Assembly: GCA_038062795.1 (NCBI GenBank)
Contig: JBBTWM010000033.1
Location: forward strand, 5,615-69,614
Reading direction: 5' to 3'
DNA: 64,000 nucleotides
DNA from: Patescibacteria group bacterium
GTDB lineage: Bacteria > Patescibacteriota > Microgenomatia > UBA10105 > UBA927
The first letter of the stretch is position 1, and every line of letters begins with the position of its first letter. The translations under genes and the position numbers were made by a program. Below, piece by piece: positions 8,768 through 60,898 of this stretch. Under the pieces are notes generated by a model that was not told where the DNA came from, did no database searches, and saw only the letters and a program-made list of their open reading frames with translations.

Positions 8768-8768
8768 T

Positions 8769-20138: not shown

Positions 20139-20139
20139 A

Positions 20140-26245: not shown

Positions 26246-26246
26246 T

Positions 26247-33975: not shown

Positions 33976-35114
33976 AACACATACCTACGCTATTTATCGG
34001 TATTGCCATAGTGCTGGGAATATATTCCTACGGATTTATAGACCCTCATTTGTCATTTTCGTCACATCCGTTCTATCTCTTTATTCAGAATGCGCTTGTC
34101 CATCTGGTGTACCGTCAATCCGTGACAGCGGCAGCACTGTATGTGTGCATCATTGTGGGTTTATTTGCTGCATACGGCATGATTATGCAATCGGCAAAAA
34201 CTGAAAAGATGAAATATTTTCCGCGATGGATGATATGGGGTATCGGGATACTGCTGGTTTCTTACCCTGCGTTTTCCTATGATATATATAACTACATCGC
34301 AACAGCTAAGGTCACATTCCAATATCGGGAGAATCCGTATGTGATGATGCCGATAGAGATTCCAAACGAGCCGATGCTTTCCTTTACCCGGGCTGCGAAC
34401 AAGGTCGCTCTTTACGGCCCGGCGTGGATAGTTTTGACGTCATTTCCGTATATTGTCGGGGCGGGAAACATGCTCGCGACTATAGTTTCGTTCAAAACGT
34501 TTACCGCGCTATTTTACACTGCGGTGACGTACCTCATTTACCGGAAAACGAAGCGATGGGACCAGGTGATGTTTTTTGCGCTCAATCCGCTGATACTTAT
34601 CGAAGTATTGGTCAGCGGGCATAACGATATTGTCATGATGGCGCTGGGTCTTGCGGGTCTCTTACTTTGGAATCGGCAGGGTATGCAATATAAAGCGGCG
34701 GGTATTATCCTGTTTATCTCTTCTGTCTTGATAAAAGGCGCGACGATTGCGTTAGTTCCGCTTTTCTTTTTTCCGAGGTGGAAATGGGAGAAAAAAATGC
34801 TGGTTGCCGGAGTCCTCATGTTCGGTGTATTTCTTCTCTCTCCTGTGCGGGAAGAAATGTACCCCTGGTATGCGGTGTGGTGGCTTAGTTGTATAGCTTT
34901 TGTTCCGATTCGGAAGCACTCGTTTATTCACTGGTTTTCATTTTGGCTGAGTTTCGGACTTATGTTGCGGTACGTGCCATGGATTGCCACCCGTGAGTAC
35001 GGTGGCATAACTCCCATAATCCGCGTTATTGCGACACTCGTGCCTGTGTTGTTTTATCTGCTTTATCGGTTTCGCAAAAATGTAAAACATCTCCGGGCCC
35101 CTTGGAAAAAGTAA
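33972..35114 (+). CDS. integral membrane protein (possibly DUF2029/GT87-like)
   Basis: Start at MKHIPTLFIGIAIV. About 10 TM segments with motifs ALNPLILIEVLVSGHNDIV and a PRWKWEKK loop. Confidence 0.35.
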   Translation: MKHIPTLFIGIAIVLGIYSYGFIDPHLSFSSHPFYLFIQNALVHLVYRQSVTAAALYVCIIVGLFAAYGMIMQSAKTEKMKYFPRWMIWGIGILLVSYPAFSYDIYNYIATAKVTFQYRENPYVMMPIEIPNEPMLSFTRAANKVALYGPAWIVLTSFPYIVGAGNMLATIVSFKTFTALFYTAVTYLIYRKTKRWDQVMFFALNPLILIEVLVSGHNDIVMMALGLAGLLLWNRQGMQYKAAGIILFISSVLIKGATIALVPLFFFPRWKWEKKMLVAGVLMFGVFLLSPVREEMYPWYAVWWLSCIAFVPIRKHSFIHWFSFWLSFGLMLRYVPWIATREYGGITPIIRVIATLVPVLFYLLYRFRKNVKHLRAPWKK

Positions 35115-35116
35115 CT

Positions 35117-36667
35117 ATGATTGCTTTTTTTCTCGCGTTCATACCGGCACTTATTGCGGCTTTGCCGCTTTTTGGTTCCCGGTTTATACCAACCCATGAT
35201 GGGGAGTACCACATCATCAGGTTCTGGCAATTTTATAAAATGCTTTCGGCAGGTGATTGGTTTCCCCGTTGGGCGCCGGATTTAAACGTCGGATTGGGAG
35301 TGCCGCTGTTTACCTTTAACTACCCGCTCCCAAACTATATAGGCAGTGCGTTCCATTTTATCGGGATGAGCTTTGCGGACAGCTTTAAGTGGTCGCTCGG
35401 ATTAGGGTACCTTACTGCGGTGATCTGGTATTACCTGTTTGCAAAAAAAGTATTCGGCACGAAGCCTGCGATAGCAGCGACCATTATTTTTTCCTATATA
35501 CCGTATTGGTTCGTGTATATGTATGTGCGGGGGTCGGTGGGTGAGGTGTGGGCAGTGTCGTTCCTTATGCTCGCCTTTGCCTCACTCGCGTATAACAAAC
35601 CCCAAACTTTTGCCATCGCCGTGGGTTTGCTCATACTTTCCCATAATATTCTCGCCATGATATTTGTTCCAATGCTGTTTATTATAGCCTTGCGTATTCG
35701 TCCGATGATCGTAGGCTGGATTGCGGGGGTCGGATTGGCGGCGTATTTTTGGGTACCGGCCTTATACGAGCGGCAGTTTGTTGTGGGCCTTAACACGGTA
35801 AATTACCGCGACCATTTCGCTGCCTTAGTGCAGATACTTTTCCCGTCGTGGGGCAGCGGCTATTCCGTGCTGGGAATAAGCGACGGCATGTCCTTCCAAA
35901 TCGGAATTGTCTCACTGCTGATTATAGGAGCGGCTGCGATTTTGCTTTTTAAAAAAAACCGTTTGGCTCCAACCATCAAGCAGATGGTCGCCCTTTCTTT
36001 ATTCGTAATTATTGCCGGTTCGTTCCTCATGACGGAATATTCTGCATTCCTATGGCGTGCCGTTCCGGTTCTCGGGTATCTGCAATTTCCGTGGCGTCTT
36101 TTGTCTGTAATAATGATTGCGGTATCTGTACTTGCGGGATTTGTAAGCCACGTAACTCCGAAATTTGGAATAATCCTTGCCTTGTGTTCTGTTTTTTTCG
36201 TGTTTTCCTACACGCGGCCGGTCACCTATGAATCCCGCAGCGACGAGTATTATTTATCACGGGATTGGTTTACAAGTGGTACCTCATCGTTAGGTGATGC
36301 GTTTCAAACACAATGGAAACAGGGCGATATCAATTATTCCCCGCAGAATTTTTCAGTTTCCGAAAGGAGTATTGACTACACGAAACTCAACCCGGTTTCA
36401 TACGTGCTTCTTTTACATGCATCGATCTCCGGCACATTGATCGCTCCGATTGCCTATTATCCCGGATGGCAGGCGAATATAGACGGGCGATCGGTGCCCA
36501 TCTCTCCAGGCGAACACGGCACTATCACATTGCCGGTGCATGAGGGAGATCAGTTGCTGCACATCCGGCTGGACTCCGCGCCATGGCAGCAGGCGGCCGG
36601 CATTACGAGCCTTCTTTCGTTGTTGTTCATAGTGCTATCATTTATACTCAGGAAACCAACGATATGA
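35117..36667 (+). CDS. polytopic membrane protein, family B paralog
   Basis: IPTHDGEYHIIRFWQFYKMLSAGDWFPRWAPDLNVGLGVPLF. The ATG at 35117 is preferred over the TTG at 35102. Confidence 0.5.
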   Translation: MIAFFLAFIPALIAALPLFGSRFIPTHDGEYHIIRFWQFYKMLSAGDWFPRWAPDLNVGLGVPLFTFNYPLPNYIGSAFHFIGMSFADSFKWSLGLGYLTAVIWYYLFAKKVFGTKPAIAATIIFSYIPYWFVYMYVRGSVGEVWAVSFLMLAFASLAYNKPQTFAIAVGLLILSHNILAMIFVPMLFIIALRIRPMIVGWIAGVGLAAYFWVPALYERQFVVGLNTVNYRDHFAALVQILFPSWGSGYSVLGISDGMSFQIGIVSLLIIGAAAILLFKKNRLAPTIKQMVALSLFVIIAGSFLMTEYSAFLWRAVPVLGYLQFPWRLLSVIMIAVSVLAGFVSHVTPKFGIILALCSVFFVFSYTRPVTYESRSDEYYLSRDWFTSGTSSLGDAFQTQWKQGDINYSPQNFSVSERSIDYTKLNPVSYVLLLHASISGTLIAPIAYYPGWQANIDGRSVPISPGEHGTITLPVHEGDQLLHIRLDSAPWQQAAGITSLLSLLFIVLSFILRKPTI

Positions 36668-37736: not shown

Positions 37737-38450
37737 ATGCGGACGTTAACTATTATCATTCCTACATATAACGAGGCAAAAACTATTCACATAGTACTGC
37801 AGCGTGTCTTCGCGTCTACGCTTCTGGGGTGGCAGAAACAGGTTGTGGTCGTGGACGACGGTTCTGTAGACGACACAGTTGGCATTCTCAAAAAATGGCA
37901 AAGCCGGGCAACTATTGTGCATCTGTCACATAATCAGGGCAAAGGCGCGGCGGTTACTGAAGGGCTGCGGCGGGCAACAGGCGATATCATTATCATACAG
38001 GATGCGGATTTGGAATATAGTCCGGATGATTACCCTGTGCTGTTGAATCCTTTTGAAAACGTACGGGTGAACGCCGTATACGGCTCGCGCTTTTTGGGTC
38101 CGCACCTTTCCACAATGTTTATCTATGCACTTGGAAATAAATTTGTGACCCTGGTTACCAACATCCTCTACAACACCACCATTACCGATATGGAAACCGG
38201 GTACAAGGCGTTCCGGAGGTCAGCGGTGAAAGATTTGGAAATCAAGGCGAAACGGTTTGATTTCGAGCCGGAGGTGACGGCAAAGTTACTCAGGAGCGGC
38301 AACCAGATTTATGAGGTTCCCATTTCCTACTACGGCCGGAAATTTGAAGAAGGGAAGAAGTTGACGTGGCGGGACGGCGTTGTGGCACTTTTCACGCTAC
38401 TCAAATACCGCTGGTGGAATCCTGCTCCGCACGGAGGAAAAAAGGTTTGA
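37737..38450 (+). CDS. polyprenol-phosphate glycosyltransferase (DPM1/GtrB-like GT2)
   Basis: IIIPTYNEAKTI...VVVVDDGSVDDT...IQDADLEYSPDD, with a short C-terminus, matches Dpm1/GtrB-like enzymes. Confidence 0.7.
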   Translation: MRTLTIIIPTYNEAKTIHIVLQRVFASTLLGWQKQVVVVDDGSVDDTVGILKKWQSRATIVHLSHNQGKGAAVTEGLRRATGDIIIIQDADLEYSPDDYPVLLNPFENVRVNAVYGSRFLGPHLSTMFIYALGNKFVTLVTNILYNTTITDMETGYKAFRRSAVKDLEIKAKRFDFEPEVTAKLLRSGNQIYEVPISYYGRKFEEGKKLTWRDGVVALFTLLKYRWWNPAPHGGKKV

Positions 38451-38452
38451 TC

Positions 38453-39712
38453 ATGAAGCGTCTTATCGAAAAACTATCTCTTGTGACGTCACATCCGTTA
38501 GCCCGCGGAAGTGCCGTGGTGCTTATTGGATCAATGGCAGCAAATGTTGGCGCCTATTTTTATCATGTCGTGGTCGGAAGATTGTTAGGACCGGAGCAAT
38601 ACGGAGAACTCGCTTCGCTTTACTCACTTTCATACTTATTAAATGTCCCATCTCTTGTTATCCAAACAGTGATAGCTAAATATGTGTCAGCCTACAAGGC
38701 AAAAAAAGAAAACGGTAAAGCAAAAGAACTAGTCATTACTGCAACGCAGTCGATGGGCTACTGGATGATTGCCATCCTTATCCTTACTGTCCCGTTATAC
38801 CGTTTTTTTGTTCAGTATCTTCATGTAACCAATTATTGGTCCGTCGTTTATGTTTTCATCGGGTCCGGAATTGTTTTTTTGGGGACCGTGATAACCGGGA
38901 CTCTCCAAGGATATCAGCAATTTACGGAACTTATGGTATTTTCCAATATAGGGGTAGTACTTCGGTTGATAGGCGGATTCATCGGAGCTTCATATAGTGT
39001 TGCGGCAACGGCATTTGCGAACGCGCTCACGGCATTTATCGCGTATGTTCTTTCCTTTATTCCACTACGTTTTTTACGTGCATCCACGCGTCAGAAAACC
39101 GGCCTGACGAAGAGAGACATAGGAACGTTTGCTGTCCCATCGCTTCTGTGTATTTTGGGAATCACGTCTCTTTATAATACTGACATCATGCTGGTGAAGC
39201 ATTATTTTTCTTCTTACGAAGCAGGCATGTATGCAGCGCTTTCTATGATGGGGAAAGTTATATTTTTCGCTAGTAGCAGCTTTTCATACGTATTGTTTCC
39301 GGTTGTAGCTGAGAGAAGCCATGTAGGAGGCCGGTCAGATAGACTTGTTTATATTTCACTTGCGGCGGTAGCGTGCATATCTTTGGGGATTACCGTTGGA
39401 TATTATATATTTCCATCTGTGGCGCTTGGACTTTTGTTCGGATCTTCCTACGCGGGTGCCTCCGGTTACCTTGGGCTTTTCGGTATATTTATTTCATTCT
39501 TTTCCTTAAGTAACATTTTAAGTACGACGTTATTGGGGATGGGCAATAAATCAGTATGGATGTTTACTGTCAGTTTTTCACTGTTGCAGATTCTGGGGAT
39601 CATGGCCGTTCATGATTCTCTCCGATCTGTTTTATACCTGAATATTGGTGTGAGCACGGCCTTATTTATGATGCTTTTGGTATACTATCGTCATGCGGTC
39701 AAAAAACATTAA
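38453..39712 (+). CDS. Wzx/MOP-family oligosaccharide flippase
   Basis: About 12 TM segments. The N-terminal block LIGSMAANVGAYFYHVVVGRLLGPEQYGELAS is typical of a polysaccharide biosynthesis protein. Confidence 0.65.
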   Translation: MKRLIEKLSLVTSHPLARGSAVVLIGSMAANVGAYFYHVVVGRLLGPEQYGELASLYSLSYLLNVPSLVIQTVIAKYVSAYKAKKENGKAKELVITATQSMGYWMIAILILTVPLYRFFVQYLHVTNYWSVVYVFIGSGIVFLGTVITGTLQGYQQFTELMVFSNIGVVLRLIGGFIGASYSVAATAFANALTAFIAYVLSFIPLRFLRASTRQKTGLTKRDIGTFAVPSLLCILGITSLYNTDIMLVKHYFSSYEAGMYAALSMMGKVIFFASSSFSYVLFPVVAERSHVGGRSDRLVYISLAAVACISLGITVGYYIFPSVALGLLFGSSYAGASGYLGLFGIFISFFSLSNILSTTLLGMGNKSVWMFTVSFSLLQILGIMAVHDSLRSVLYLNIGVSTALFMMLLVYYRHAVKKH

Positions 39713-40496
39713 ACTGCTTTCTCTTATTATTCCGGTATATCATCAGGAGCGGACTATCCGGAAACAACTTCAGAATATCATCGGTGAGCTTGAGTTGCTC
39801 GCGACTCCATATGAGGTAATTGTCGTAGTCGACGGCCTGGATGACAAATGCTTCGAAGAAGCCAAAAAAGTTCACTCGGACAAGATCACCGTTACCGGAT
39901 ACAAAACGAATCACGGGAAGGGGTACGCGGTACGTTTCGGTATGGGGAAAAGCCACGGTGATGTTATCGGATTCTTAGATGCCGGTGGGGATTTGAGTGA
40001 GTTGGGATTGTCCATGATGACGGAGCATTATAAATGGTATAACGCAGATATTATTATCGGGAGCAAACGCCACCCGGTATCCAAAGTCGCGTACCCAATT
40101 GCGAGGAAAATTTTATCCTGGGGATATCAACAACTGGTGCGTTTGTTATTCGGCCTCAACGTGAGAGACACCCAAGTCGGCATGAAACTGTACCGCAGGG
40201 AAGTGTTGGAAGATGTACTCCCCAGACTCGTAGTTAAGCAATTTGCTTTTGACATAGAGATTTTGGCGGTTGCATATCATTTGGGGTACCGGCGCATTTT
40301 CGAAGCACCGGTCGAACTGGATTTTACCGGAGCTTCCAGCATTACCTCTATGGGGGTGTGGAAAACCATATGGAACATGCTCTGGGATACATTCGCCGTG
40401 TATTACCGACTGCACATATTGCATTATTATGATAATCTCAACAAGCGGAAATGGAAGTTTGACAAAGAGCTTAATTTCAACGTCTCTGTCCCGTAA
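39693..40496 (+). CDS. family 2 glycosyltransferase
   Basis: LSLIIPVYHQERTI...VIVVVDGLDD. Confidence 0.7.
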   Translation: MRSKNIKLLSLIIPVYHQERTIRKQLQNIIGELELLATPYEVIVVVDGLDDKCFEEAKKVHSDKITVTGYKTNHGKGYAVRFGMGKSHGDVIGFLDAGGDLSELGLSMMTEHYKWYNADIIIGSKRHPVSKVAYPIARKILSWGYQQLVRLLFGLNVRDTQVGMKLYRREVLEDVLPRLVVKQFAFDIEILAVAYHLGYRRIFEAPVELDFTGASSITSMGVWKTIWNMLWDTFAVYYRLHILHYYDNLNKRKWKFDKELNFNVSVP

Positions 40497-40506
40497 AGGA
40501 AATAGT

Positions 40507-41535
40507 ATGAACATTGTTATAACCGGCGGGGCCGGATTTATCGGATGTAATGCTGCGGCGTATTATCTGGCAAAAAAAGCAGATGTTATCGTCTTTGACA
40601 ACCTCTCCCGTGCAAATACCGATAAAAATCTTGCCTGGCTGAAAACGCTCGGGGGCAATCTTACCTATATAAAGGGAGATTTGCGTTCTATTGCTGATAC
40701 AGCCAAGCTTATTTCGTTTCTTGCGGATGCTGATGCAGTGCTTCATTTGGCTGCGCAAGTTGCCGTAACCACGTCGGTTATAAACCCACGGGAAGATTTC
40801 GAAATCAATGCAGTGGGCACATTTAATCTATTGGAAGCGATGCGGGCATCCGAAAGTCGGGCTAAGCTCATTTATTCTTCGACAAATAAAGTCTACGGAG
40901 GTATGGAGGATGTTGCAGTCGAGGAAAAGGACACTCGGTATGATTACGCAAATCTTCCGTACGGTGTGAGTGAAGATCGGCAGTTAGACTTTCACTCCCC
41001 ATACGGTTGTTCCAAGGGAGCTGCTGATCAGTATGTCCATGATTATGGCAGGATATACGGACTAGATACCGTCGTCATGCGTCAATCCTGTATTTATGGT
41101 CCCCGGCAGTTTGGTGTAGAAGATCAGGGGTGGGTCGCATGGTTTATCATCGCAACGGCATTGGGGCATAAATTGGCAATCTACGGAGATGGTAAGCAAG
41201 TGCGGGATCTTCTGTATGTCGATGATCTTATCGCAGCATACGATATGGCTATTCTAGCCGGTAAGAAAACCCGTGGAGGAATGTATAATATCGGAGGAGG
41301 GCCGAATAATACGCTTTCCGTTTGGCATGAGTTTGGTCCGATGCTGGAAAAGCTTTTCGGCAAAAAAATTCCGGTAACTCATGAGGACTGGCGCCCGGGA
41401 GATCAGAAAATATTCGTGGCAGACATCCGTAAAGCAAAAAAAGAATTCGGATGGGAGCCACGTGTGTCAGTAGAAGCTGGTATTGAGAAACTTTACATGT
41501 GGGTCAGCGCAAACAAAACGCTTTTTCGCTCCTAA
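40507..41535 (+). CDS. NAD-dependent sugar epimerase, CDP-paratose 2-epimerase (tyvelose epimerase)-like
   Basis: GGAGFIGCN..., SSTNKVYG, PYGCSKGAADQYV and RQSCIYGPRQFGVEDQGWVAWF closely match the CDP-tyvelose 2-epimerase / ADP-heptose epimerase branch of the SDR family. Confidence 0.6.
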   Translation: MNIVITGGAGFIGCNAAAYYLAKKADVIVFDNLSRANTDKNLAWLKTLGGNLTYIKGDLRSIADTAKLISFLADADAVLHLAAQVAVTTSVINPREDFEINAVGTFNLLEAMRASESRAKLIYSSTNKVYGGMEDVAVEEKDTRYDYANLPYGVSEDRQLDFHSPYGCSKGAADQYVHDYGRIYGLDTVVMRQSCIYGPRQFGVEDQGWVAWFIIATALGHKLAIYGDGKQVRDLLYVDDLIAAYDMAILAGKKTRGGMYNIGGGPNNTLSVWHEFGPMLEKLFGKKIPVTHEDWRPGDQKIFVADIRKAKKEFGWEPRVSVEAGIEKLYMWVSANKTLFRS

Positions 41536-49679: not shown

Positions 49680-50675
49680 ATGAAAAAAGCAAGCAAAAAT
49701 ATCAAGACTGCGTTAGTATGCGGAGCCGGAGGATTTATCGGCGGACACCTCGTGAAGCGCCTCAAGAAAGAAGGCTATTGGGTGAGGGGGGCAGATATCA
49801 AGCGGCATGAATACAGCAAAAGTCAGGCAGACGAGTTTTTGGTAGGGGACCTTCGTGATCAGAATTTTTGCAAAAAAGTGTTTAACCGTCCGCTTGATGA
49901 GGTCTACCAGCTTGCGGCAGATATGGGAGGAGCAGGGTATATTTTTACCGGCGATCATGATGCCGACGTGATGCACAATTCTGCACAAATAAATCTCAAC
50001 GTTTTGCATTTTGGGAGACTCGCAAAAATTAAAAAGATATTTTTTTCTTCCTCAGCATGTATTTATCCTGAACGGAACCAGATGGATGCCAGTAAGCCGA
50101 ATTGTGAGGAATCATCAGCCTACCCTGCGGCCCCCGACAGCGAGTACGGATGGGAAAAGATTTTCAGCGAACGGCTATATCAGGCGTTTCGGAGAAATTA
50201 CGATATGGAGGTGCATATTGCGCGTTTTCATAATATTTTTGGCCCTGAAGGAAGCTGGAATAACGGCAAAGAAAAGTCTCCTGCAGCCATCTGCCGCAAA
50301 GTAGCTCAGGCCCAAAACGGGGGCACTATAGAAATGTGGGGGGATGGCAAACAGACGCGTTCTTACCTTTACATAGATGAGTGTCTTGAGGGTGTCCGGA
50401 GACTGATGAATAGCAAATTTTCCGGACCGGTCAACATAGGGTCGGAAGAGATGGTAAGTATCAATAAGCTCGCCGAAATGGCAATGCAGATAGCAGGAAA
50501 AAAACTGAATATTAAGCATATCAAAGGACCCTTGGGAGTACGCGGAAGATCCTCAGATAATAGATTAATCAGAAAACAGTTAGATTGGGAACCGACGAGC
50601 AAGTTGTTAGACGGCCTCACCAAAACGTATACATGGATAGACGAACAGGTCAAACATCATCGCAAGGACAAATAA
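49680..50675 (+). CDS. GDP-mannose 3,5-epimerase (GME) homolog
   Basis: Long collinear motif matches to plant GME: AADMGGAGYI, SSACIYPE, HNIFGPEGSWNNGKEKSPAAICRK, EMWGDGKQTRSYLYIDECLEGVRRL, PVNIGSEEMVSINKLAEM and GVRGRSSDNRLIRKQLDW. Confidence 0.7.
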   Translation: MKKASKNIKTALVCGAGGFIGGHLVKRLKKEGYWVRGADIKRHEYSKSQADEFLVGDLRDQNFCKKVFNRPLDEVYQLAADMGGAGYIFTGDHDADVMHNSAQINLNVLHFGRLAKIKKIFFSSSACIYPERNQMDASKPNCEESSAYPAAPDSEYGWEKIFSERLYQAFRRNYDMEVHIARFHNIFGPEGSWNNGKEKSPAAICRKVAQAQNGGTIEMWGDGKQTRSYLYIDECLEGVRRLMNSKFSGPVNIGSEEMVSINKLAEMAMQIAGKKLNIKHIKGPLGVRGRSSDNRLIRKQLDWEPTSKLLDGLTKTYTWIDEQVKHHRKDK

Positions 50676-50682
50676 TACAACT

Positions 50683-51504
50683 ATGCAGACAAACTTAGTT
50701 ATCGGTTCCGAGGGATTTATCGGCACGCCCTTTTGCCGTTTCCTCGAAGGAAAAGGAGAAAAAGTTATCCGTTTTGATATCAGACGGGACAAAGAAGAAG
50801 ATGCCCGATTTGTAAAGCTTCCGTTTTCGAACGTCGATAAAGTATATTTTCTCGCATGGGACGTAGGCGGGAGCAAATACCTCTACGAGCCCAAACTTCA
50901 AAAAAACCAGCTTGATTGGAATCTTTCGCTCATGAAAAACGTATTTGACCAGCTGGAGAAAGCCAAAAAACCGTTCGTTTTTATTTCGAGCCAGTTATCT
51001 GAAGAAGTCGATACGGTATATGGGGTAACGAAACGGTTGGGTGAGGTGTGGACCGATCTTTTAGGAGGCAAATGCGTACGTGTATGGAATGCCTATGGAT
51101 ATATGGAGGGGCAGGATGTGAAGAGTCACGTGATTTCTGACTTTATCTATCAGGCGCTCAAAACTAAAAAAATTACGATGATGACCAATGGCACTGAATG
51201 GCGTCAGTTTACCCATATTACCGATTTATCCAATGCTTTTTATATGGCACTCAATTCCAATGGACTACGGAAAATCGTATATGACGCGAGCAGTTACGAA
51301 TGGGTCCAGATTATTGACATGGCCAACATGATTGCCGAGTTTACCGGAGCCACAGTTGTCCCGGGCACCAAAATCGGTCATGACCCAATTGCCTCGCCAA
51401 ACAGAGGACGAATTCCCGGATGGTTGCCGACTATCGAGCTTCGGGACGGGATCCACGCGATGGTTGAAGAGGCTAAGCTCCGGATAAAGAATGAAAAACG
51501 CTAA
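50683..51504 (+). CDS. NAD(P)-dependent epimerase/reductase (short SDR)
   Basis: LVIGSEGFIGTPF...YGVTKRLGE. It is 273 aa, the size class of 4-ketoreductases and dTDP-rhamnose-reductase-like enzymes. Confidence 0.5.
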   Translation: MQTNLVIGSEGFIGTPFCRFLEGKGEKVIRFDIRRDKEEDARFVKLPFSNVDKVYFLAWDVGGSKYLYEPKLQKNQLDWNLSLMKNVFDQLEKAKKPFVFISSQLSEEVDTVYGVTKRLGEVWTDLLGGKCVRVWNAYGYMEGQDVKSHVISDFIYQALKTKKITMMTNGTEWRQFTHITDLSNAFYMALNSNGLRKIVYDASSYEWVQIIDMANMIAEFTGATVVPGTKIGHDPIASPNRGRIPGWLPTIELRDGIHAMVEEAKLRIKNEKR

Positions 51505-52726
51505 CCTCGGCTTCAACAAAGACACTTCCGTTTTGTTTGCAACTTTCTCACTATGGGCAAACGGGAAACGCATGCCAACAAACGGTAGTGTGGAACCGCT
51601 TCGGGATTTTTTAGTTCCCAAAATAAAGAAATTAGTCCTGATTGACCAGTTGGTTCCCGGTGGAGAAGATGTTGCCTATAAAATTGAGGTATACACCAAC
51701 GGAAACATGAAGTGTGATACGCCCGATCCGTCATGGTGGTATGCCTGGTTTCGCCCCTGGCTTACATGGACAAACCGTAACGGAACGCAAATATCATTTA
51801 AAATCCGCGATTTTCTTTCTGTTGTCGATTGGCCCTTCCGTACGAACACTACCTATGATTACCTTATCGGTTTGGAAAGTATAAACGCGCTTGCCGGTAT
51901 CCTGCTTCGTCACTTCGGAAAAGTACGAAAAGTGGTATATTACGTTTCCGACTATTCTCCTGCAAGGTATCCCAATAAGCTGTTTAATGCCTTATATTTG
52001 GCACTTGATCGCTATTGTGCGAGGCATGCGGATTACATTTGGGATGTGTCCGATGCAATGCAGAAAGCGCGTATTGCGGCAGGGCTAGATCCTCAAACAT
52101 CAGCACCGGTTATCCATGTTGCAAATGGGTTATTTCCCGATCAGATAATCCCTGGTCATCCGAAGCAAAATAATATCCACGCATTGGCATACATGGGGAC
52201 GGTTGGACCCGAAAATGGGCCAGATGTGGCTATAGAAGCGCTGGCTATTGTACGAAAAAAATATTCAGACGCGGTGTTGCACATGATCGGGGGTAAACCT
52301 TCTGATTTTGCATGGCTTCTTCCGATAATTAAAAAGTTAGACTTGGAGCGCGTAGTGATTCACCATGGGTTTGTACCTAAGGCGGCGGATATGGCAAAAA
52401 TTATGAATGCATGTTCGATAGGCCTTGCACCATACAGAGCTATATCTGGTTCGCCCAGATACTACGGTGACGCAGGGAAAATACGTGCGTATGCAGGGGC
52501 TGGGTTGCCAATTATATGTTCTTCTGTCCCACCGTTGGGAAAGGAAGCTGCCGAACAGGGAGCGGCTATCGTTACCAACGACGATGCCCAGAGCATCGCA
52601 AAAATGGTAATGCAACTATTTTCTGATTCAGAATACTATACATCCTTACAGGAAAATGCGCGAAAGTTTGCAAAAAATAATACCTGGGAAAATCAATTTA
52701 TGTCAGCATTCACACGCATGAAATAG
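51491..52726 (+). CDS. GT-B glycosyltransferase-like protein (GT4-related), paralog of 48478
   Basis: YYVSDYSPARYPNKLFNALYLALDRYCARHADYIW aligns with the 48478 protein. The C-terminal domain is Rossmann-like. Confidence 0.5.
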   Translation: MKNANLGFNKDTSVLFATFSLWANGKRMPTNGSVEPLRDFLVPKIKKLVLIDQLVPGGEDVAYKIEVYTNGNMKCDTPDPSWWYAWFRPWLTWTNRNGTQISFKIRDFLSVVDWPFRTNTTYDYLIGLESINALAGILLRHFGKVRKVVYYVSDYSPARYPNKLFNALYLALDRYCARHADYIWDVSDAMQKARIAAGLDPQTSAPVIHVANGLFPDQIIPGHPKQNNIHALAYMGTVGPENGPDVAIEALAIVRKKYSDAVLHMIGGKPSDFAWLLPIIKKLDLERVVIHHGFVPKAADMAKIMNACSIGLAPYRAISGSPRYYGDAGKIRAYAGAGLPIICSSVPPLGKEAAEQGAAIVTNDDAQSIAKMVMQLFSDSEYYTSLQENARKFAKNNTWENQFMSAFTRMK

Positions 52727-52794
52727 GCATAGAGTATCTGCATAAGCGCAATCTTGCGTTTACGGTGAATACCCTATAAGATAAATCGTTATAC

Positions 52795-53424
52795 ATGATG
52801 AAATCATTGTTGCCCTATTTTTATAATCTTACATATTTCAAAGTATTGGAATGGAATTTACGGGACTGCCGTAATGTTTTAGATGTTGGTTGCGGAAGCG
52901 ATTCACCGATAGGACATATCCCACATACATTTATTTCCGAAGGAATTGACGCATACAAAAAATCAATCGATAAAAGTAAAAAGAAGAAATTGCATGATCA
53001 TTACCGGATAGGCAATATAATGAAGCTAAATTCATTTTATAAAAGGAAAAGTTTCGATGCGGTTGTTTGTCTGGATGTTATTGAACATCTTAAGCCTAAA
53101 GATACTGTGAAACTGATTCATCTCATGGAGAGTATTGCGATAAAAAAAGTAATCCTTCTTACCCCAAACGGTTTTTATCATCAACATGCACTTGAAGGAA
53201 ATATATATCAGGTGCATCAATCAGGTTGGAAAGCTGGTGATCTAGCAGATTTAGGATATAAAGTTTTCGGTTTGCGGGGATTGCAATTGTTGCGTGATGA
53301 TCACGCGTCAATAAAGTATCGCCCATGGATTTTTTGGGGATTTTGCTCATTTATTTCGGAAATTATTTTTTACCCATTCCCCGGCTTCTGTTTTGATTTA
53401 TTTGCGGTGAAAAACATGCGTTAA
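52795..53424 (+). CDS. class I SAM-dependent methyltransferase
   Basis: VLDVGCGSDSP...VVCLDVIEHL. Confidence 0.65.
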   Translation: MMKSLLPYFYNLTYFKVLEWNLRDCRNVLDVGCGSDSPIGHIPHTFISEGIDAYKKSIDKSKKKKLHDHYRIGNIMKLNSFYKRKSFDAVVCLDVIEHLKPKDTVKLIHLMESIAIKKVILLTPNGFYHQHALEGNIYQVHQSGWKAGDLADLGYKVFGLRGLQLLRDDHASIKYRPWIFWGFCSFISEIIFYPFPGFCFDLFAVKNMR

Positions 53425-53425
53425 T

Positions 53426-56400
53426 ATGATGCGATTGCAGTCATTTCGAAAAATAATATTTGACATAGTTGTTATTGCGTTTATTTCGCTTATTCCGCTA
53501 TTTTGGTTTCCGAATGGGTACATTGTAACTGGTCATGATGCAGGATATCCCATAAACATCCAGGAAACATTTCGCAATAGACTATTTACTTGGAACAGCC
53601 AGCAAAATTTTGGAATTGACAATACCCCCAATGTCGGTGCTGTTCCAATTCATGCCATTGAGGCAGTGTTTTATGTCATGGGAGCGTCACCTGCCCAAGC
53701 ACAGCAATTTTCTTTTATGTTTTGGCTTTTTCTCATGATGGCTTCGATGTATACGCTAGCTTATTCGTTTCAACGGGACATTCCATATCGATTTTTTCCT
53801 CTTATCGCTTCTGTATTGTATGTTGTAAATTTTTTTCTCCTTGCACTGTGGCGCTATGGTGCTGCGACAACATTTTCCGCCTACTGCGCCCTCCCGATAA
53901 TACTCGCTCTCGTTATTGCTGCGCTTCAAAATAGAATTCCGGTACTAAAAGCCGGTATAGCTATTTCATTTGCTGCCATGGTCTTTAACGGTGGAGGAGG
54001 GTTGAGTCTCCCGCTGTTCGGAGCATTACTTATCAGTGTTCTGAGTGCCATAGTGTATTTTGCCGCCTTAGAGGGGAAAAACGGGTGGAAAGTCATAGTT
54101 TGGAAAACCATGTATCTTGGTCTCTGTATCATAATACTGTCGGCGATACTTAACGCCTACTGGCTATTCCCGTTCATTCATTACGCAACATCCAACTTTG
54201 CCCGCGGTCTCGAAGCAAACGGCGGAGCAGCGGGGGTTTTGGCATGGACAGATTCCGTGAGCAAATACACGAGTTTGATAAACCTATTCCGTTTACAGGG
54301 AATTCCTGAGTGGTACGATAACGCAGTTCACCCGTTTTCCAATGCGTATTTAACAAACCCGCTGTTAATCGGCGCCAGCTTTCTCTTTGCCCCTCTTGCC
54401 TACGCGTCGTTGTTATTCGCAAATGAAATCCGCCAAAAACAACTGATACTTTATTTTGTGCTGTTGTCCCTGATTGCCGCATTTTTTTCTGCAGGTACGC
54501 ATGCTCCCACGGGATGGTTATTTGCACAATTTATGCTTCATGTGCCCGGATTTGTCATTTTCCGCTCAGCACAATATAAATTTGTGCCTGCACTCTATTT
54601 ATCGTTTGCGATTCTTATTTCTTTTTCCCTAAATTATCTTATTTATAAAACCCCAGTATGGGAAAAATTTAAAGCAATATCTCCTCGATTATTACGCACA
54701 TCTGCGGTTTTTATATGCATCCTTGTTGTACTTGGGTACCATTGGCCGTATTTTCGGACGGAATTTTTTCAATACAGTCCTCCCTTAACGACGCTTTTAA
54801 AAGTTCCTGACTACGTACTTGCATATGACGAGTGGATCGACGATCACTTGGACGACGATAAGAGAACATTAATTTTGCCCCTTTACAATTCTTCATGGAA
54901 AGCGGCAGTATATTCGTGGAAATATTTCAGTTTGTACAGCCTGTTTAATATTATCCGACCGAAACCGTTTCTGGAGCATTCGCAAATGCTTAGCGGAAGC
55001 CAGCTTGCTTTGATGGAACGCTTTTCTCATGAGATTCTTCATCAAGGCCCCCTGGCGCGACAGTTTGCTGAGTTCTTGGGTGTCCGTTACATATTATTGA
55101 CCGGCGATGTAGATTTTTCCCTCAGAGGAATGCTTACGGAGAATCCTGCTGATTATAAAAAAGCGCTATCAAACTATCCCGTGTTGTGGACGAATGGACC
55201 ATGGCAACTCTATGAGGCCCCGAGTGTTACGGACACAAAGCCGTTATATTATATAAAATCGCTGACGCAGTACATAGGTAGAGAGCCAGACATTACCGGT
55301 GTTGTGATAAACGGGGCAAATAATTTTTTTCATCAGTATGACAAATCACATCCGATGGCGGTTGCCATAAGCCGCGATATTCCTATATCAAATACGATCG
55401 AAGCATTGCTGTGCGATTCATGCGTTATGGAAACGGCTGTAAATAAAATTGAAGTGCCCCACAGCCTTATATTGCCTGGATCAATTTTTTATACGCTCAA
55501 GCAATGGAAAGAAAAACCGCTGGAGCATGAGAGCCTGCCAGAGTCCCAATTGATTATAAACAAGCTGGGCTTGTCCCTTAAGCGCGTGTCGGATATTGCT
55601 TCATTAGTCCAACTGAATAAAAGCGAACGCAGCATCATGGTAACAGCCGACACGTTGATGGCATATTGGAAATATATAGAAGAAAAAGTAACGACCGGCG
55701 AAAATTCAGAGCCCGATTATTCGCTTCTGCACAGAATCGAAGGGTATGTTTTATCGGAAAAAGAAGTCCTGTTGAAGGCATATGGCGAATCAAAAAGCGG
55801 CGGTGTCCGTCAGCGTCTTATTTCGGTCATTAACAAACTTACGCAAATTGAAGTTGCAATTGTCGGTGTCCGGAACAAAACGTCTATTCTGAAGCAGTAC
55901 CGCGTGTCGCAAGTCGCTCAAAATGCTGAGTTTTTTCTGGATGCCGATTCACTTTCGAAAGATGTAAATCAATCGTATATATATCCGATGGCAATGGAGT
56001 TCAATGGTAAATCATTAGGGATTACCCCTGTGGCAGAGAATGAGCGCGTGTCGTTGGGCACGTTTGATTTGCGCGGAGTTGATCGGATAACCCTTCGTTT
56101 CCCCCAGCCTGCGAATGTATTGATAAATCGCCGCGTAGAGTCTGTCGTCGCATTCGGTACAACAAATTTCTGTATTGTCGGGGAGGCGGGAAATTTCAAT
56201 AGGAATAAAAGTTATAGAATACATATGCCTGATCCCTCCGGAACTCCTGAAGGAGCTGCGATCCATGTTGTTAGAAAAAAGAACTCTGTAACAAAGGATG
56301 AGGGAACATCGATAAATTATTTTACCAATCCTGACGTCACGTTTTCTATAAACCGGACGGCAACCGTACCGCAAAATTATTATTTTTCCGGAATAGACGG

Positions 56401-56947
56401 GGACATCGGGGTGACAGTATATTACTGTGCCTCAACGCAGATGACACAAGCGGGCGAGAGAGAGGACATATCTCTCGAGGAGATAGCTGCGCCAAGCCTT
56501 TTTATCAGCGCCCATGAACAATATGCATCAAACGCGCGAGTGGAAAATGCATCGTATACTCGCGTAGATCAAACCAAATACTATGTAGAATCGAATCAGG
56601 AGGCATGGCCTACGATATTGGTATTTAATCAGAACTACGACCGGAAGTGGAAGCTCTACGACATACAGGGTGATAACGGCCTCAATTCCTACCTGCCGGC
56701 GATTATGGAAACATGGTTTCAAAAGCCAATTGTGGAAAGCGATCATTTTGCAGTGAACGGGTACGCAAATGCCTGGTTATTGCGCAGCGAACCGTCAGGA
56801 AGGCTCGTGCTTGAATATTATCCGCAGCAGCTTCTCTACAAGGGCATCGTGGTAACAATAGCCAGTTTCGTTATACTTATAAGTGTGTATATGACAAATG
56901 GGAAGCGCGACAAACGGGAATCATTAACACAAATAGGAGCAGTATGA
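53426..56947 (+). CDS. very large (1173 aa) membrane protein: N-terminal polytopic GT-C-like domain plus ~700-aa extracytoplasmic domain
   Basis: The first ~480 aa are multi-TM with a TGHDAGYPIN loop motif. The remainder is hydrophilic with one C-terminal TM segment (VVTIASFVILISVYM). Confidence 0.45.
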   Translation: MMRLQSFRKIIFDIVVIAFISLIPLFWFPNGYIVTGHDAGYPINIQETFRNRLFTWNSQQNFGIDNTPNVGAVPIHAIEAVFYVMGASPAQAQQFSFMFWLFLMMASMYTLAYSFQRDIPYRFFPLIASVLYVVNFFLLALWRYGAATTFSAYCALPIILALVIAALQNRIPVLKAGIAISFAAMVFNGGGGLSLPLFGALLISVLSAIVYFAALEGKNGWKVIVWKTMYLGLCIIILSAILNAYWLFPFIHYATSNFARGLEANGGAAGVLAWTDSVSKYTSLINLFRLQGIPEWYDNAVHPFSNAYLTNPLLIGASFLFAPLAYASLLFANEIRQKQLILYFVLLSLIAAFFSAGTHAPTGWLFAQFMLHVPGFVIFRSAQYKFVPALYLSFAILISFSLNYLIYKTPVWEKFKAISPRLLRTSAVFICILVVLGYHWPYFRTEFFQYSPPLTTLLKVPDYVLAYDEWIDDHLDDDKRTLILPLYNSSWKAAVYSWKYFSLYSLFNIIRPKPFLEHSQMLSGSQLALMERFSHEILHQGPLARQFAEFLGVRYILLTGDVDFSLRGMLTENPADYKKALSNYPVLWTNGPWQLYEAPSVTDTKPLYYIKSLTQYIGREPDITGVVINGANNFFHQYDKSHPMAVAISRDIPISNTIEALLCDSCVMETAVNKIEVPHSLILPGSIFYTLKQWKEKPLEHESLPESQLIINKLGLSLKRVSDIASLVQLNKSERSIMVTADTLMAYWKYIEEKVTTGENSEPDYSLLHRIEGYVLSEKEVLLKAYGESKSGGVRQRLISVINKLTQIEVAIVGVRNKTSILKQYRVSQVAQNAEFFLDADSLSKDVNQSYIYPMAMEFNGKSLGITPVAENERVSLGTFDLRGVDRITLRFPQPANVLINRRVESVVAFGTTNFCIVGEAGNFNRNKSYRIHMPDPSGTPEGAAIHVVRKKNSVTKDEGTSINYFTNPDVTFSINRTATVPQNYYFSGIDGDIGVTVYYCASTQMTQAGEREDISLEEIAAPSLFISAHEQYASNARVENASYTRVDQTKYYVESNQEAWPTILVFNQNYDRKWKLYDIQGDNGLNSYLPAIMETWFQKPIVESDHFAVNGYANAWLLRSEPSGRLVLEYYPQQLLYKGIVVTIASFVILISVYMTNGKRDKRESLTQIGAV

Positions 56948-57315
56948 TGGAACGTCTAAGACCGATACAACACGCGTTTGAACAAAAAATTCTCGCATAC
57001 GGGCAGGCTCATGTGTTTGAGCTGGAAATATTTGCGGTAGCTATACTTGCTGTGGCCCTAATTGGGAAAATTCCGTATCTCAACATAGTTATTACAAAGC
57101 AAATTTCTTTGCTGCTGCTTATTGTTTTTGGGGCATATTTATTTCAGATAAAAAAACAGGTGTTATTAACCTTTTCATTGTTATTATTTGCGTGCGCACT
57201 TGTGTTGTCTCTTGCAGGAAAAATGGACTCAGCTGAATCTATAGGCACTATCATATATGCATTACTATGGTTTGTGGCAATGCTTTATGTTAAGGATATA
57301 TGGCGGCAAATATGA
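56944..57315 (+). CDS. small membrane protein (3-4 TM), hypothetical
   Basis: 123 aa, hydrophobic, with ATGA overlap to the upstream gene. Confidence 0.35.
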
Positions 57316-57908
57316 ACAAATATTTTTCTATACTTGCAAGAAAAGGATTTGTTGAGTGTGTTGTCGGCGCAGTATCGATAAGTGTTATGAAACTATACTC
57401 TCTCGTGCAATCTGTTTTTTTGAATACGCGCGGATACGGCATAGGATCCGGCGTTATAGTGAGTCCCACAGCAGTTTTCTTTCAAAGCAGAAGTAGAGCT
57501 ATCTCGGTCGGGCGAAACACTCGAATCGGGAGAAATACGAGAATTAATGCAGGATTTGACGGAAAAATAAACATTGGCGCAAATGCACATATAGATGATG
57601 GTACGTTTATTATGGCCCAGGAGGATATACGCATAGGCAGCGATACGTGGATAGCCGGGTGTTGTTTTATTACCGACTTTAATCATTCATTTGAAAAAAG
57701 GAACATAAAAATATCAGATCAGGGATATGAAACGAAGCCGGTACGTATAGGCGCAGATGTTTGGATAGGTACGCACAGCGTCATATTACCTGGTGTCACA
57801 ATAGGCGATGGGGCAGTCATTGGGGCAGGATCGATTGTGACCAAGAGTGTACCCCCATATGCGGTAGTTGCAGGAAACCCTGCGAAGATCATAAAACTAA
57901 GAAAATGA
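57300..57908 (+). CDS. hexapeptide-repeat (LbH) O-acetyltransferase, maltose/galactoside acetyltransferase-like
   Basis: Repeated [LIV]G..x..I hexads: [63 protein letters not shown]...[10 protein letters not shown]. An alternative ATG lies at 57312. Confidence 0.75.
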
Positions 57909-60898
57909 ATTTCTTACGTAAGCACGCATTTGTTATATTCATTGGGTTTGTTATTGCATTCCTGTATCACAACTGGTTTTCCAAAGGGTTATTGACTGCT
58001 CCTGATTTTTCCTATATATCCCCGTTGCAACTGCATGATCTGAAAGATCTTCCGTTTGCTTGGTCGAGCATGTTTGGTTCAGGACTCGGGGGATCGACCT
58101 TTAATATTCTGAATTTAGAAACGTACTTACATCTTGGTGTTCAATTGGTAGTTTTTCTGATGCATATACCATGGAACGCAGCATATCGAATTCTTTTCTT
58201 TTGGCCGTTTCTTCTCATTGGCTCCGTTTCATCATTTTATTTCTGCCATGAAATATTGAAGCACAAGGCTATTTCCGCATTGGGAATGCTTATCTACATG
58301 ACGAACACCTACGTACTGATGCTGGCGGGTGGTGGGCAGGTAGGGCTAATGATGGCCTATGCGTTCGCTCCATTAGTACTAGCGAGTTTTATAAAGAGGA
58401 ATACGGTGTTATTTATTTTTTCGACTGCAATGCTTTTGTTGTTTGATTTGCGATTCAGCTTTCTTATCGCCGGAGTGATAATGTTATATTCGTTATTTAT
58501 TATTCCGAGGAGAGAATGGGCCTCTCTCATGTTGTGGTGTATAGTTCCGCTGCTTATTGTTATCGGAATTCATAGCTTTTGGATTATTCCTACGGTATTT
58601 GGCGGCGGGTTGGCTTTGCCGGAGGGATATGGAAGTTCCGATTGGCTCAAATTTTTAAGCTGGGCGGAATTTTCAAAATCCCTTTCATTGCTTCACCCGA
58701 ATTGGCCGGAAAATATATTTGGTAAAACCTATTTTTTTCAGCCGGAGTTTATAGGGATTCCGATTGTCGCGTTTAGCTCGTTTTTGTTTATACGATCTCC
58801 AAAACAGAAAACGACCCGTCAGCATATCTTATTCTTTTCTCTATTAAGTTTAGTTGGTATATTTTTTTCGAAAGGGATTAACCCGCCTTTTGGTGGTGTG
58901 AATGAATGGTTTTTTTTGCACGCGCCTTTTTTTAATGGATTTCGGGATCCCACCAAGTTTTATTTGATAACTATTATTTCTTATAGCGTCCTTATCCCGT
59001 TTGCACTTTTAAATATTTCGGATTTATTAAAGGTGAAACTTCTAAAATACAGGAACATTATGTCACCCGTAACGTTGGTAATATTTTTAGGGCTATGGTT
59101 GGTAACGATACGTGCACTTGTCGTTGGAGATGTCGGCGGAACGTTCGGAAAATTAACCGTTCCAACGGCATATGATGATTTTGGTAAATTCGTTTATTCC
59201 AATAATTCCTTCGGACGGACATTGGTCGTTCCATGGAAAAACAGATTTGTATTTCAGTCGGAAAATCATCCCGTGGTGAATGCGAGGGATGTATTTCAGA
59301 CGACAGATATAGAGCGCATTGCTGCATTGTTTCGTGAACCGTCGACAGAAATGAAATTAAGGCAACTCGCGGTTAAATATGTCGTTGTACCGGATGATTT
59401 CACTAATGAGATTTTTCTAAATGACAGATCCCCTGATCCCGAGTTGCGGTCGCGCGTCGTAGGCATATTAGATAAGCTGCCTTATCTGGACAAAATAAAG
59501 AGATTTGACGGATTAGATTATTATGAATTTACAAAGTTTACCGGCCATTTTTTTACTATATTACCCAATCTGGATGCCGCGGTGTATGTACATCGTAAAA
59601 TAAGTCCTGTGACATATTCGGTTGATGTCACGTTGTCTCAACGACCTGTCGATGTCATATTTTCTGAAGCGTATGATCCTACTTGGGAGCTTTGGGATGG
59701 AGAAAAAATAGTTCACCCTCATAAAACGCCGGATGGAGTTATGGCATTCTCCATAGACTCGGATATAACCGGACAGCTTACTGTTCATAATACGAATCAG
59801 AGGTGGGTCGACTTAGGATATACGACGACATTGGTTGTGCTGATACTGATCATCTTGTTGGGGTATGTCCTATTGTGCAGGAGGTACCGTCTAGGATTTA
59901 AGATACATGCGGTGTTGCTGACTGTTGGAGTCAGTCTATATTTTATTTTCGTACAGAAAGATACGTCTCTCCATGCGTTATACGACAAGGATATTCTGTG
60001 GTCAACCGAGTGGCGACATTTATACAATCCAATTCTAGACAAATCGCTTATGGTGTCCCGTTATGGAGGCGCTGAAATAAGATTTCGCGTTCGTAATAGC
60101 AAGGAAATAGTGATACAAGCAGCGAGCTCCAACGATGAGGCGCATATACAGGGCATTGATGTGACAATAGACGGAAAAACCACAACGCTGGAAACTCCAA
60201 TCTACGATGCCAGGATGACTGTCGGTACGGCAGACTCTTTAAAGAAGCCGGTCGATGTAGTTATAAGGCATTGGTGCGCTGGGACAATGGGACCGTGTGA
60301 CTTGGCTATTACAGATATCCAGATCGATAAAGGAGCTTCTATTGAACCATCTGGACAGCATCAGAAAAAAATATTGGCTGTGTTAGGGGACTCGATCTCA
60401 GTTTCGTTTGGTAATCTGAATTATACTTATGCTCTTGTGGAAAAGCTTGGATATCGTTTGCATAACGCATCTATTTTTGGATCGACTATCGTTGAGGCGC
60501 AAGGTTGGGACTGGAGTATGAGCCGCTATCGCAAGGATATTATCGCCTACAAGCCTGATGTGTTGCTTATATTTTTGGGAACGAACGATTTATTGCACGA
60601 TAAACAGATTTTCCGCAATAATTATAATTCGATGCTCGGTGAGATCAAGGAGAAAAGTCCGAACACAAAAATTATTTCTTTTGGGTTATTACGAAGAAAA
60701 GACTTTACTTGGTTCCAAGTCACCAACGTTAGCAGAATAATTGCGTCTATTGCCGAAGAGAATAACGTCCAGTATGTTGATCCGTATAATTGGTTAGATG
60801 AAAATGACCTGCAGGACGTAGTGCATCCTTCTCCAAAGAGTCAACAAAAATTAGCCGATAGAATGTACGAGGCATTGTCTCAGGTTGTCGCTAATTGA
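57905..60898 (+). CDS. large membrane protein with C-terminal SGNH/GDSL hydrolase domain
   Basis: The N-terminal ~650 aa are polytopic. The C-terminus has GDSL block I ([10 protein letters not shown]), block III GTNDLL, and block [15 protein letters not shown] (the DxxH catalytic dyad). Confidence 0.6.

Follow-up and report, generated by a model that had tools for sequence, protein, structure and literature searches.

The stretch of DNA analysed here, a 64-kb window from a Patescibacteria group bacterium, carries at 53426–60898 four consecutive genes, all on the + strand in the list of open reading frames (ORFs), which we call P1 to P4. P1 (53426–56947, +) encodes a 1173-residue AftD-family GT-C glycosyltransferase with a polytopic N-terminus and one C-terminal transmembrane (TM) helix, P2 (56944–57315, +) a small membrane protein of 123 residues, P3 (57300–57908, +) a 202-residue LbH (hexapeptide) O-acetyltransferase of the WbbJ/WcaF/maltose-acetyltransferase type, and P4 (57905–60898, +) a protein of 997 residues counted from the ATG at 57905, its ORF as listed running 57761–60898. 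An earlier note on this DNA had proposed a putative glycan O-acetylation module made of four translationally coupled genes, and the gene structure it described was borne out: the ORFs are as it gave them, the junction sequences at P1/P2 and P3/P4 read ATGA, and the P2/P3 overlap is 16 nt as annotated. This last junction would also become ATGA if P3 began at its fifth codon, 57312, which is likely its true start because it fits the N-termini of homologues better. The same note had taken P1 for a membrane protein with a large extracytoplasmic domain, on which hydropathy and an AlphaFold2 model agree, and P2 for a membrane protein, which by hydropathy is hydrophobic over nearly its whole length. 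Hydropathy further shows that P1 and P4 both have a polytopic N-terminus and that they end with one and two C-terminal TM helices, respectively. The four-gene arrangement is not due to chance, since the proteins have hundreds of homologues and the four-gene order recurs in other genomes.

Residues 683–997 of P4 are a CE2-like unit of two domains, a beta-sandwich with the CE2-type N-terminal fold and an invariant cysteine pair, C791/C798 (residues 683–815; 59951–60349, +), and an SGNH hydrolase domain (residues 816–997 and the stop codon; 60350–60898, +). The SGNH/GDSL domain that had been predicted at this end of P4 scored above the cutoff in the Pfam scan (Lipase_GDSL_2 over residues 826–981, E 2e-19, 71 bits against a cutoff of 32.9), and its quoted motifs are present when checked codon by codon: GDS at 828–830, GTND at 892–895 and DVVH at 971–974. 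The top Foldseek matches of the module are CE2 enzymes, namely CjCE2A (2WAA, E 1.4e-13), CtCE2 (2WAO), 4XVH and Est2A (3U37), with E values from 1e-13 to 1e-11, TMt of about 0.7 (0.71 for 2waa and 2wao) and nearly the whole CE2 structure aligned. A profile from alignment A1, which comprises 34 full-length P4 homologues, matched the N-terminal beta-sandwich of 4XVH (its residues 19–126) with residues 720–835 and also matched SGNH esterases in the PDB. A beta-sandwich followed by an SGNH domain is the defining layout of CE2 (PMC9487903); we nevertheless write CE2-like rather than CE2 because Pfam CE2_N (PF17996) gave no match in P4 at E<=10, a family that more distant SGNH relatives of the module do carry. 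When residues 683–997 were searched against 1.84 billion representative proteins, only 33 relatives were found at E<1e-30, about a dozen of them fusion proteins and about 25 stand-alone esterases, the latter being 320–360 residues long and anchored by a TM segment at the N-terminus (alignments A3/A4). Beyond these, the closest sequences belong to genuine CE2 proteins (CE2_N plus GDSL) and other secreted polysaccharide or carbohydrate esterases.

The residues on which SGNH chemistry depends are all in place, as the earlier description required of its catalytic Ser, Asp and His: S830 (60392–60394), D971 (60815–60817) and H974 (60824–60826), together with the oxyanion residues G859 and N894, are invariant in the 34 full-length homologues, and 26 stand-alone homologues keep Ser, Asn and His without exception and the block V Asp almost without exception. 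The C791/C798 pair is conserved in the stand-alone proteins as well. Many CE2 enzymes use a Ser-His dyad with a Trp in the block V DxxH motif, CjCE2A being an exception with a full triad (PMC9487903). Block V of P4 is DVVH, with an invariant Asp and no Trp, which gives a full Ser-His-Asp triad like that of CjCE2A, and its Gly/Asn oxyanion hole is canonical. The module thus resembles CjCE2A, CtCE2 and Est2A in joining a beta-sandwich to an SGNH domain and in its oxyanion hole, and differs from the CE2 family in the missing CE2_N match, the DVVH motif without Trp, the invariant cysteine pair, and its membrane tether and biosynthetic setting, CE2 enzymes being secreted proteins that degrade plant polysaccharides. 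This conservation also bears on the idea that the module is mainly a non-catalytic glycan-binding unit that holds the acceptor for the GT-C domain, in the manner of the carbohydrate-binding modules (CBMs) of AftD. Such a role has precedents in the active site of CtCE2, which is reported to double as a cellulose-binding site (PMC2661963), and in the three CBMs of AftD (bioRxiv 10.1101/2019.12.22.885152); pure binding, however, would not need five catalytic and oxyanion residues kept invariant in 34 fusions, or the Ser, Asn, His and Asp so well kept in 26 free-standing proteins, and we regard this explanation as highly improbable.

The membrane parts of both P1 and P4 returned nothing from Pfam or NCBIfam even at E<=10, and their assignment comes from profiles and predicted structures. 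P4 comprises a GT-C transmembrane domain of about 11 TM helices (residues 1–401; 57905–59107, +) and an extracytoplasmic alpha/beta domain of the GT-C module (residues 402–631; 59108–59797, +), which is homologous to the equivalent part of P1 by hhalign to residue 551 and by the secondary structure of the model. P1 and P4 share 26% identity over about 400 residues in BLASTP (E 5e-18), their family profiles align with 99.8% probability (hhalign, E 1.3e-29) over 528 columns that take in the entire membrane domain and the first of the soluble domains, and on these alignments the two are paralogues of each other. The P1-family profile matches AftD, a mycobacterial arabinofuranosyltransferase (6W98), by sequence in three collinear stretches (E 4.9e-8), and PF11847, the AftD-type GT-C domain, is present in many P1 relatives and in one P4 relative. 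AlphaFold2 models of P4 (pLDDT 87.1, pTM 0.82) and P1 (pLDDT 88.4, pTM 0.86) were compared with the PDB using Foldseek: P4 matched AftD (6w98, E 1.3e-10) and the archaeal oligosaccharyltransferase AglB and, apart from many esterase-fold matches to its C-terminal module, only GT-C structures stand among its matches listed, while P1 matched AftD (E 2.9e-16) and then AftA, PglB and ArnT.

P1 and P4 are therefore both AftD-like GT-C enzymes, although they are not close members of the AftD family. In both, the GT-C fold, the succession of helices and outer loops and the presence of a periplasmic domain behind TM11 are those of AftD, and as in AftD the first outer loop carries a conserved Asp, D34 in P4 (58004–58006) and D38 in P1 (53537–53539), each invariant within its family; profile–profile alignment pairs D34, in the sequence APDF, with D38, in GHDAGY. 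Further invariant residues in the GT-C part of P4 are D181 and R183, one additional loop, and the segment FRDPTKF (R347, D348 and K351). P1 shares with AftD a large ectodomain containing beta-sandwich modules and a C-terminal NGW/NGYANAW segment that aligns with AftD; this ectodomain comprises the GT-C periplasmic domain, a helical bundle (689–819) and beta-sandwiches (822–1131), followed by the single C-terminal TM helix. The differences are substantial. Identity in the Foldseek alignments is 10–13%, the host is a bacterium of the candidate phyla radiation (CPR) that lacks arabinogalactan, and P4 has an esterase where AftD has carbohydrate-binding modules. P1 and P4 also fall below the Pfam model when scored alone and have one and two C-terminal TM helices, respectively, in place of the five of AftD, whose acyl carrier protein (ACP)-binding bundle is absent; it is for these two reasons that we do not count them as close family members. 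Five residues of AftD have been shown to be essential, K39, D41, E251, K361 and D474 (bioRxiv 10.1101/2019.12.22.885152). As a separate observation on the P1 family, a DUF5667 (PF18915) protein is encoded at 33367–33975 and the same Pfam family is flagged in several P1 homologues, where it may correspond to the P1 helical bundle at 689–819.

These results bear directly on whether P4 is an ordinary O-acetyltransferase of the OatA/OafA type, with an AT3 (PF01757) membrane domain too divergent for Pfam to recognize. The overall layout, a polytopic N-terminus followed by an outside SGNH domain, is indeed the same, and P4 resembles both OatA/OafA (AT3-SGNH) and PatA/PatB (MBOAT-SGNH) in coupling an extracytoplasmic SGNH domain, by fusion or as a separate partner, to a polytopic membrane protein of a pathway for envelope glycans. 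In P4, however, a GT-C domain takes the place of the acyl-translocating AT3 or MBOAT protein, the cluster's acetyl donor enzyme is a soluble LbH protein, and the SGNH domain most resembles hydrolases. No AT3 match appeared at E<=10, no AT3-type structure stands among the Foldseek matches listed for P1 or P4, the membrane domain joins the AftD family by both profile and fold, and a 230-residue soluble GT-C domain lies between it and the SGNH module. We consider the OatA-type explanation refuted by this evidence, with next to no chance of being correct. With a GT-C-like N-terminus, no AT3 domain and an intact triad, the proposal of a putative glycan O-acetylation module is upheld, and we are highly confident that the domain assignments are correct.

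The position of the esterase relative to the membrane follows from the topology predicted for P4. In the model the helix order is that of AftD, with 11 TM helices, the soluble domain at 402–631, TM12 and then an extra TM13; TM12 and TM13 form a hairpin (residues 632–682; 59798–59950, +) around a cytoplasmic RRYR loop. The long outer loops TM1/2, TM7/8 and TM9/10 of the model carry the invariant motifs, and in a positive-inside pattern the stretches predicted to be cytoplasmic, among them the N-terminus and the TM12–TM13 loop CRRYRLGFK, hold clusters of Lys and Arg. Relatives of 650–690 residues end just past TM12; P4 continues into TM13, which would lead the chain back out of the cell. Its topology, which resembles that of AftD, its positive-inside loops, the added hairpin and the invariant cysteine pair together argue strongly that the esterase module lies outside the cell, on the same side as the GT-C active site, in agreement with the outer-face location that the earlier note had given the SGNH domain.

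P2 is made up of about four helices, with the motifs IPYxN and AExxGN conserved in its loops (alignment A5), and no Pfam family, GtrA included, was found for 18 members of its family. Its gene lies between the two GT-C genes, an arrangement also seen in many relatives without the esterase, and the P2-family profile finds members in 46 related loci. P3 contains hexapeptide repeats, as had been noted (Pfam Hexapep PF00132, 49.9 bits against a cutoff of 27). Its best NCBIfam model is WbbJ (E 1.5e-35, 122 bits against an equivalog cutoff of 243), and almost all the models on which it scores highest describe O-acetyltransferases, with those for WbbJ, WcaF, maltose and galactoside each below the equivalog cutoff. 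P3 is presumed to be cytoplasmic and dependent on acetyl-CoA.

The fusion of a GT-C enzyme to an SGNH esterase is conserved in related genomes, where the earlier note had suggested that it be sought. Full-length homologues of P4 form about 37 protein clusters of 32–50% identity in at least 10 species-level genomes, always in the same frame, which excludes an assembly or gene-calling artefact as the source of the fusion; relatives without the esterase number in the hundreds and have 650–690 residues. To survey their surroundings, one genome per GTDB species was scanned, yielding 79 distinct loci, and every ORF was scored with hidden Markov models (HMMs) from our own alignments. The informatively named loci belong to Gottesman-, Woese-, Levy- and Roizmanbacteria, that is, to Microgenomatia-type Patescibacteria. 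Four loci (L006, L010, L013 and L015) and about 30 other metagenome-assembled genome records are titled "uncultured Gammaproteobacteria bacterium" despite a Patescibacteria-type locus, a placeholder or mislabel. The order of a P1-family gene (about 1150 residues), a P2-family gene (about 125 residues), an LbH gene and the fusion is kept down to 32% identity (L001, L004, L005, L006, L008, L009, L013 and L014). Since many loci without the esterase still retain the trio of a P1-family gene, a P2-family gene and a 650-residue GT-C gene, this trio is the older unit. A 1340-residue variant of the fusion, with an N-terminal extension of about 345 residues composed of one TM helix, a beta-rich stretch and 4–5 further TM helices, occurs in L003, L050 and L011. 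It is preceded in L003 (7173–14035) by an LbH gene and a diverged 741-residue GT-C-like protein that replaces the P1/P2 pair, and in L050 by an LbH orthologue; the L011 contig is too short to show its flanks.

Across these loci the esterase module is co-inherited with the LbH gene, whether fused or free. An LbH orthologue (at least 170 bits) lies directly upstream of the fusion in all nine species-level loci that have upstream DNA, whereas an LbH gene scoring above 100 bits occurs within 4 kb in only two of the 67 loci whose GT-C lacks the esterase (Fisher's exact test, 4e-10, with kinship among loci ignored). Where the esterase stands alone, the association persists: L086 has a stand-alone esterase followed directly by an LbH gene and a P1-family GT-C gene, L087 a stand-alone esterase followed by the start of an LbH gene, and L088 an LbH gene within 5 kb of the stand-alone esterase. 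In L004/L012 (10001–13935), a fusion with a shortened beta-sandwich, matched by the esterase HMM from position 68, is followed by a full stand-alone, TM-anchored copy of 347 residues.

The whole 64-kb window is one glycan-biosynthesis island, and the unit that is conserved with P1–P4, often though not always, extends into the genes before them. Directly upstream lies a cassette (49680–53424) that Pfam identifies as an SDR epimerase/dehydratase (49680–50675, +), a second SDR-like protein (50683–51504, +), a GT4 glycosyltransferase (51491–52726, +) and an S-adenosylmethionine (SAM) methyltransferase (52795–53424, +). Its SDR enzymes have weak matches to several nucleotide-sugar enzymes, and the cassette also lies directly upstream in L001, L003, L004 and L086 (where it precedes the stand-alone esterase), with the methyltransferase placed differently in L001 and L003. 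Elsewhere the island encodes a Wzx-like flippase (34–1377), at least seven GT2 and at least seven GT4 enzymes, SDRs, a DegT aminotransferase, methyltransferases and at least 14 GT-C-type polytopic proteins, including the two AftD-like ones, P1 and P4. The others include PMT_2 proteins at 14629–16299 (-), 16303–17937 (-), 21820–23313, 24623–26245, 26229–27902 and 27911–29539, YfhO proteins at 5397–7721, 8751–11021 and 17934–20219 (-), PTPS_related proteins at 20140–21819 (-) and 30942–32693, and a GT87-like protein at 23355–24626. Five large ORFs without a Pfam match (12891–14600, 29536–31038, 33876–35114, 35102–36667 and 38366–39712) could be divergent membrane glycosyltransferases. The GT2 enzyme at 37737–38450 resembles AglJ, ArnC and PpgS below their cutoffs; these are polyprenyl-phosphate-hexose synthases, the kind of enzyme that supplies GT-C donors. 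Neither AT3 nor MBOAT was found in a Pfam scan of about 54 of the 56 window ORFs of at least 150 residues plus P2, or in the precomputed Pfam annotation of the homologue flanks.

Immediately downstream, P5 (60885–62495, +) encodes a polytopic membrane protein of about 518–536 residues, with a likely ATG start near 60939 and no Pfam or NCBIfam family; BLASTP shows no similarity to P4, of which P5 is thus not a paralogue. Homologues of P5 occur just downstream of the fusion in L006, L013 and L014; in L085 one comes after the stand-alone esterase, and in L001/L007 one lies downstream at a distance of about 7 kb. The membership of P5 in the module is uncertain. Two further features of the island concern other genes. 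A Bro-N domain protein (E 2.7e-10) is encoded at 3931–4758, between GT2 genes and a HAD hydrolase, a domain usually associated with phages or viruses. The SDR dehydratase ORF at 40270–41535 has a TTG start and shares about 225 nt with the GT2 gene before it; its Pfam match begins at residue 80, and its true start is probably near 40500.

Taken as a whole, the locus suggests a scheme that we hold with evenly balanced confidence, in which P4 is a bifunctional membrane enzyme and the assembly of a surface glycan proceeds by acetylation inside the cell, GT-C transfer, and de-O-acetylation outside. Acetyl-CoA is available only in the cytoplasm, and there P3 would use it to O-acetylate a sugar of a lipid-linked precursor, which would then be flipped across the membrane. 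The GT-C domains of P1 and P4, perhaps as a complex with P2, would build the glycan outside. By analogy with other GT-C enzymes, residues 1–631 of P4 would add a sugar from a polyprenyl-phosphate carrier to the growing envelope glycan at the outer face, a donor for which the GT2 gene at 37737–38450 offers indirect support. The tethered esterase would finally remove the O-acetyl group next to the transfer site, either unmasking a hydroxyl or setting the final level of acetylation. We infer the substrates, the order of these events, and hydrolysis over acetyl transfer. The earlier note had ventured that the fusion may couple glycosyl transfer to O-acetylation or deacetylation on the outer face: its structural half stands, in that a GT-C enzyme is fused to an esterase predicted to lie outside, whereas the functional coupling is an inference, with deacetylation favoured over acetylation.

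Comparison with known systems shows where this scheme has parallels. In group B Streptococcus and E. coli K1, the LbH O-acetyltransferase NeuD and an O-acetylesterase fused within NeuA set the O-acetylation of the sialic-acid capsule (PMC8319020). The present locus likewise pairs an LbH enzyme with an esterase that is part of a second enzyme from the same glycan pathway. NeuD and NeuA, however, both act within the cytoplasm, on sialic acid that is free or CMP-activated, and the NeuA esterase is fused to a nucleotidyltransferase, whereas the P4 esterase is predicted to lie outside the membrane and is fused to a glycosyltransferase. The YfhO/CsbB three-component systems of Gram-positive bacteria follow a comparable logic, with a GT2 enzyme as the source of a polyprenyl-phosphate sugar, a membrane protein of small size and a GT-C enzyme acting outside; a faint Pfam match to YfhO is seen in one relative of P4, and YfhO-family genes lie elsewhere in the window. 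P1 and P4 themselves, however, have no YfhO match, P2 is not GtrA/GtcA-like by Pfam, and the present locus has two GT-C enzymes together with an acetylation/deacetylation pair.

The tight linkage of LbH and SGNH would also be expected if the CE2-like module were a trans-acetylase, so that a lipid-linked sugar acetylated by LbH ferries the acetyl group over the membrane and the SGNH serine moves it to a hydroxyl of the nascent polymer. The lack of AT3 and MBOAT from the 64-kb window scan and the homologue flanks is in keeping with such a role, SGNH transferases are well known (PMC9487903), and SsfX3, an acyltransferase with the same two-domain layout, is among the fold matches of P4. Yet the nearest folds and the nearest sequence relatives of the module are hydrolases (CE2 and xylan-type esterases), its Gly/Asn oxyanion hole is canonical for hydrolases, whereas characterized SGNH transferases are often altered in block II/III (PMC9487903), and a sugar that LbH had acetylated would carry the acetyl group with it on incorporation, with no transferase needed. 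We therefore think a trans-acetylase unlikely. There is a slim prospect that the locus represents a third route of extracytoplasmic O-acetylation that dispenses with AT3 and MBOAT, with SGNH acting as a trans-acetylase onto the nascent glycan, or alternatively that removal of the acetyl group is a checkpoint licensing each round of GT-C extension.

The esterase might instead act on a different substrate, such as O-acetylated peptidoglycan in the manner of Ape enzymes, a glycan of a host cell or an acylated lipid, with LbH decorating the final glycan and the fusion serving as an envelope anchor. The peptidoglycan O-acetylesterase Ape1 is among the fold matches, one homologue is named "lysophospholipase L1-like esterase" in its source database, and one locus, L044, keeps LbH without the esterase. 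The Ape1 match is far weaker than those to CE2, however (TMt about 0.35 against about 0.7), and the esterase stays beside LbH in three arrangements, fused, stand-alone upstream of LbH, and as a duplicated stand-alone copy, while the module is absent from the 67 esterase-less GT-C loci, only two of them with a nearby LbH orthologue. This pattern leaves a separate substrate improbable, in our estimation.

Several points weigh against the scheme of cytoplasmic acetylation followed by outer-face deacetylation. The locus L044 (4925–12043) encodes a P1-family GT-C enzyme, a small TM protein, LbH (159 bits), a 243-residue ORF and a 697-residue GT-C enzyme without the esterase, with no stand-alone esterase within 10 kb, which means that the pathway does not strictly require deacetylation. 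Because the fusion proteins all belong to a single subfamily, a very small number of evolutionary events may lie behind the association in nine of nine loci. On its own, P4 gives no match to a GT-C or CE2_N model of Pfam, and D34 of P4 and D38 of P1 lie within a few residues of AftD D41, to which their exact equivalence is presumptive. Some SGNH domains are acetyltransferases (OatA, PatB, AlgX and SsfX3), and sequence cannot separate hydrolase from transferase.

Bacteria are known to acylate and de-acylate extracytoplasmic glycans through AT3-SGNH proteins, MBOAT-SGNH systems and free esterases. The architecture described here had been called unusual, and rightly so: our full-text searches of the literature, in which YfhO/GT-C and AftD were also looked for in Patescibacteria, brought up no account of a GT-C-SGNH fusion, a review of SGNH enzymes does not mention GT-C (PMC9487903), and the source databases label these proteins only "SGNH/GDSL hydrolase family protein" or "hypothetical". 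What is new is the combination of parts, the co-inheritance of the esterase with LbH, and the assignment of two large CPR families to AftD-like GT-C enzymes; the parts themselves are of known kinds.

Our findings provide a functional handle on two unannotated families of "hypothetical" membrane proteins, of about 650 and about 1150 residues, with hundreds of members. They concern Microgenomatia-type Patescibacteria, a group whose envelopes are almost unstudied and whose genomes hold very large islands devoted to GT-C enzymes, and although these organisms are uncultured, the soluble esterase module can be expressed and assayed. The tethering of an esterase to a polymer-building enzyme, and its inheritance together with an acetyltransferase of the cytoplasm, suggest that the assembly of the envelope glycan includes transient O-acetylation as an integral step, in which the acetyl group could serve as a protecting group, a checkpoint for chain extension or a rheostat of surface acetylation.

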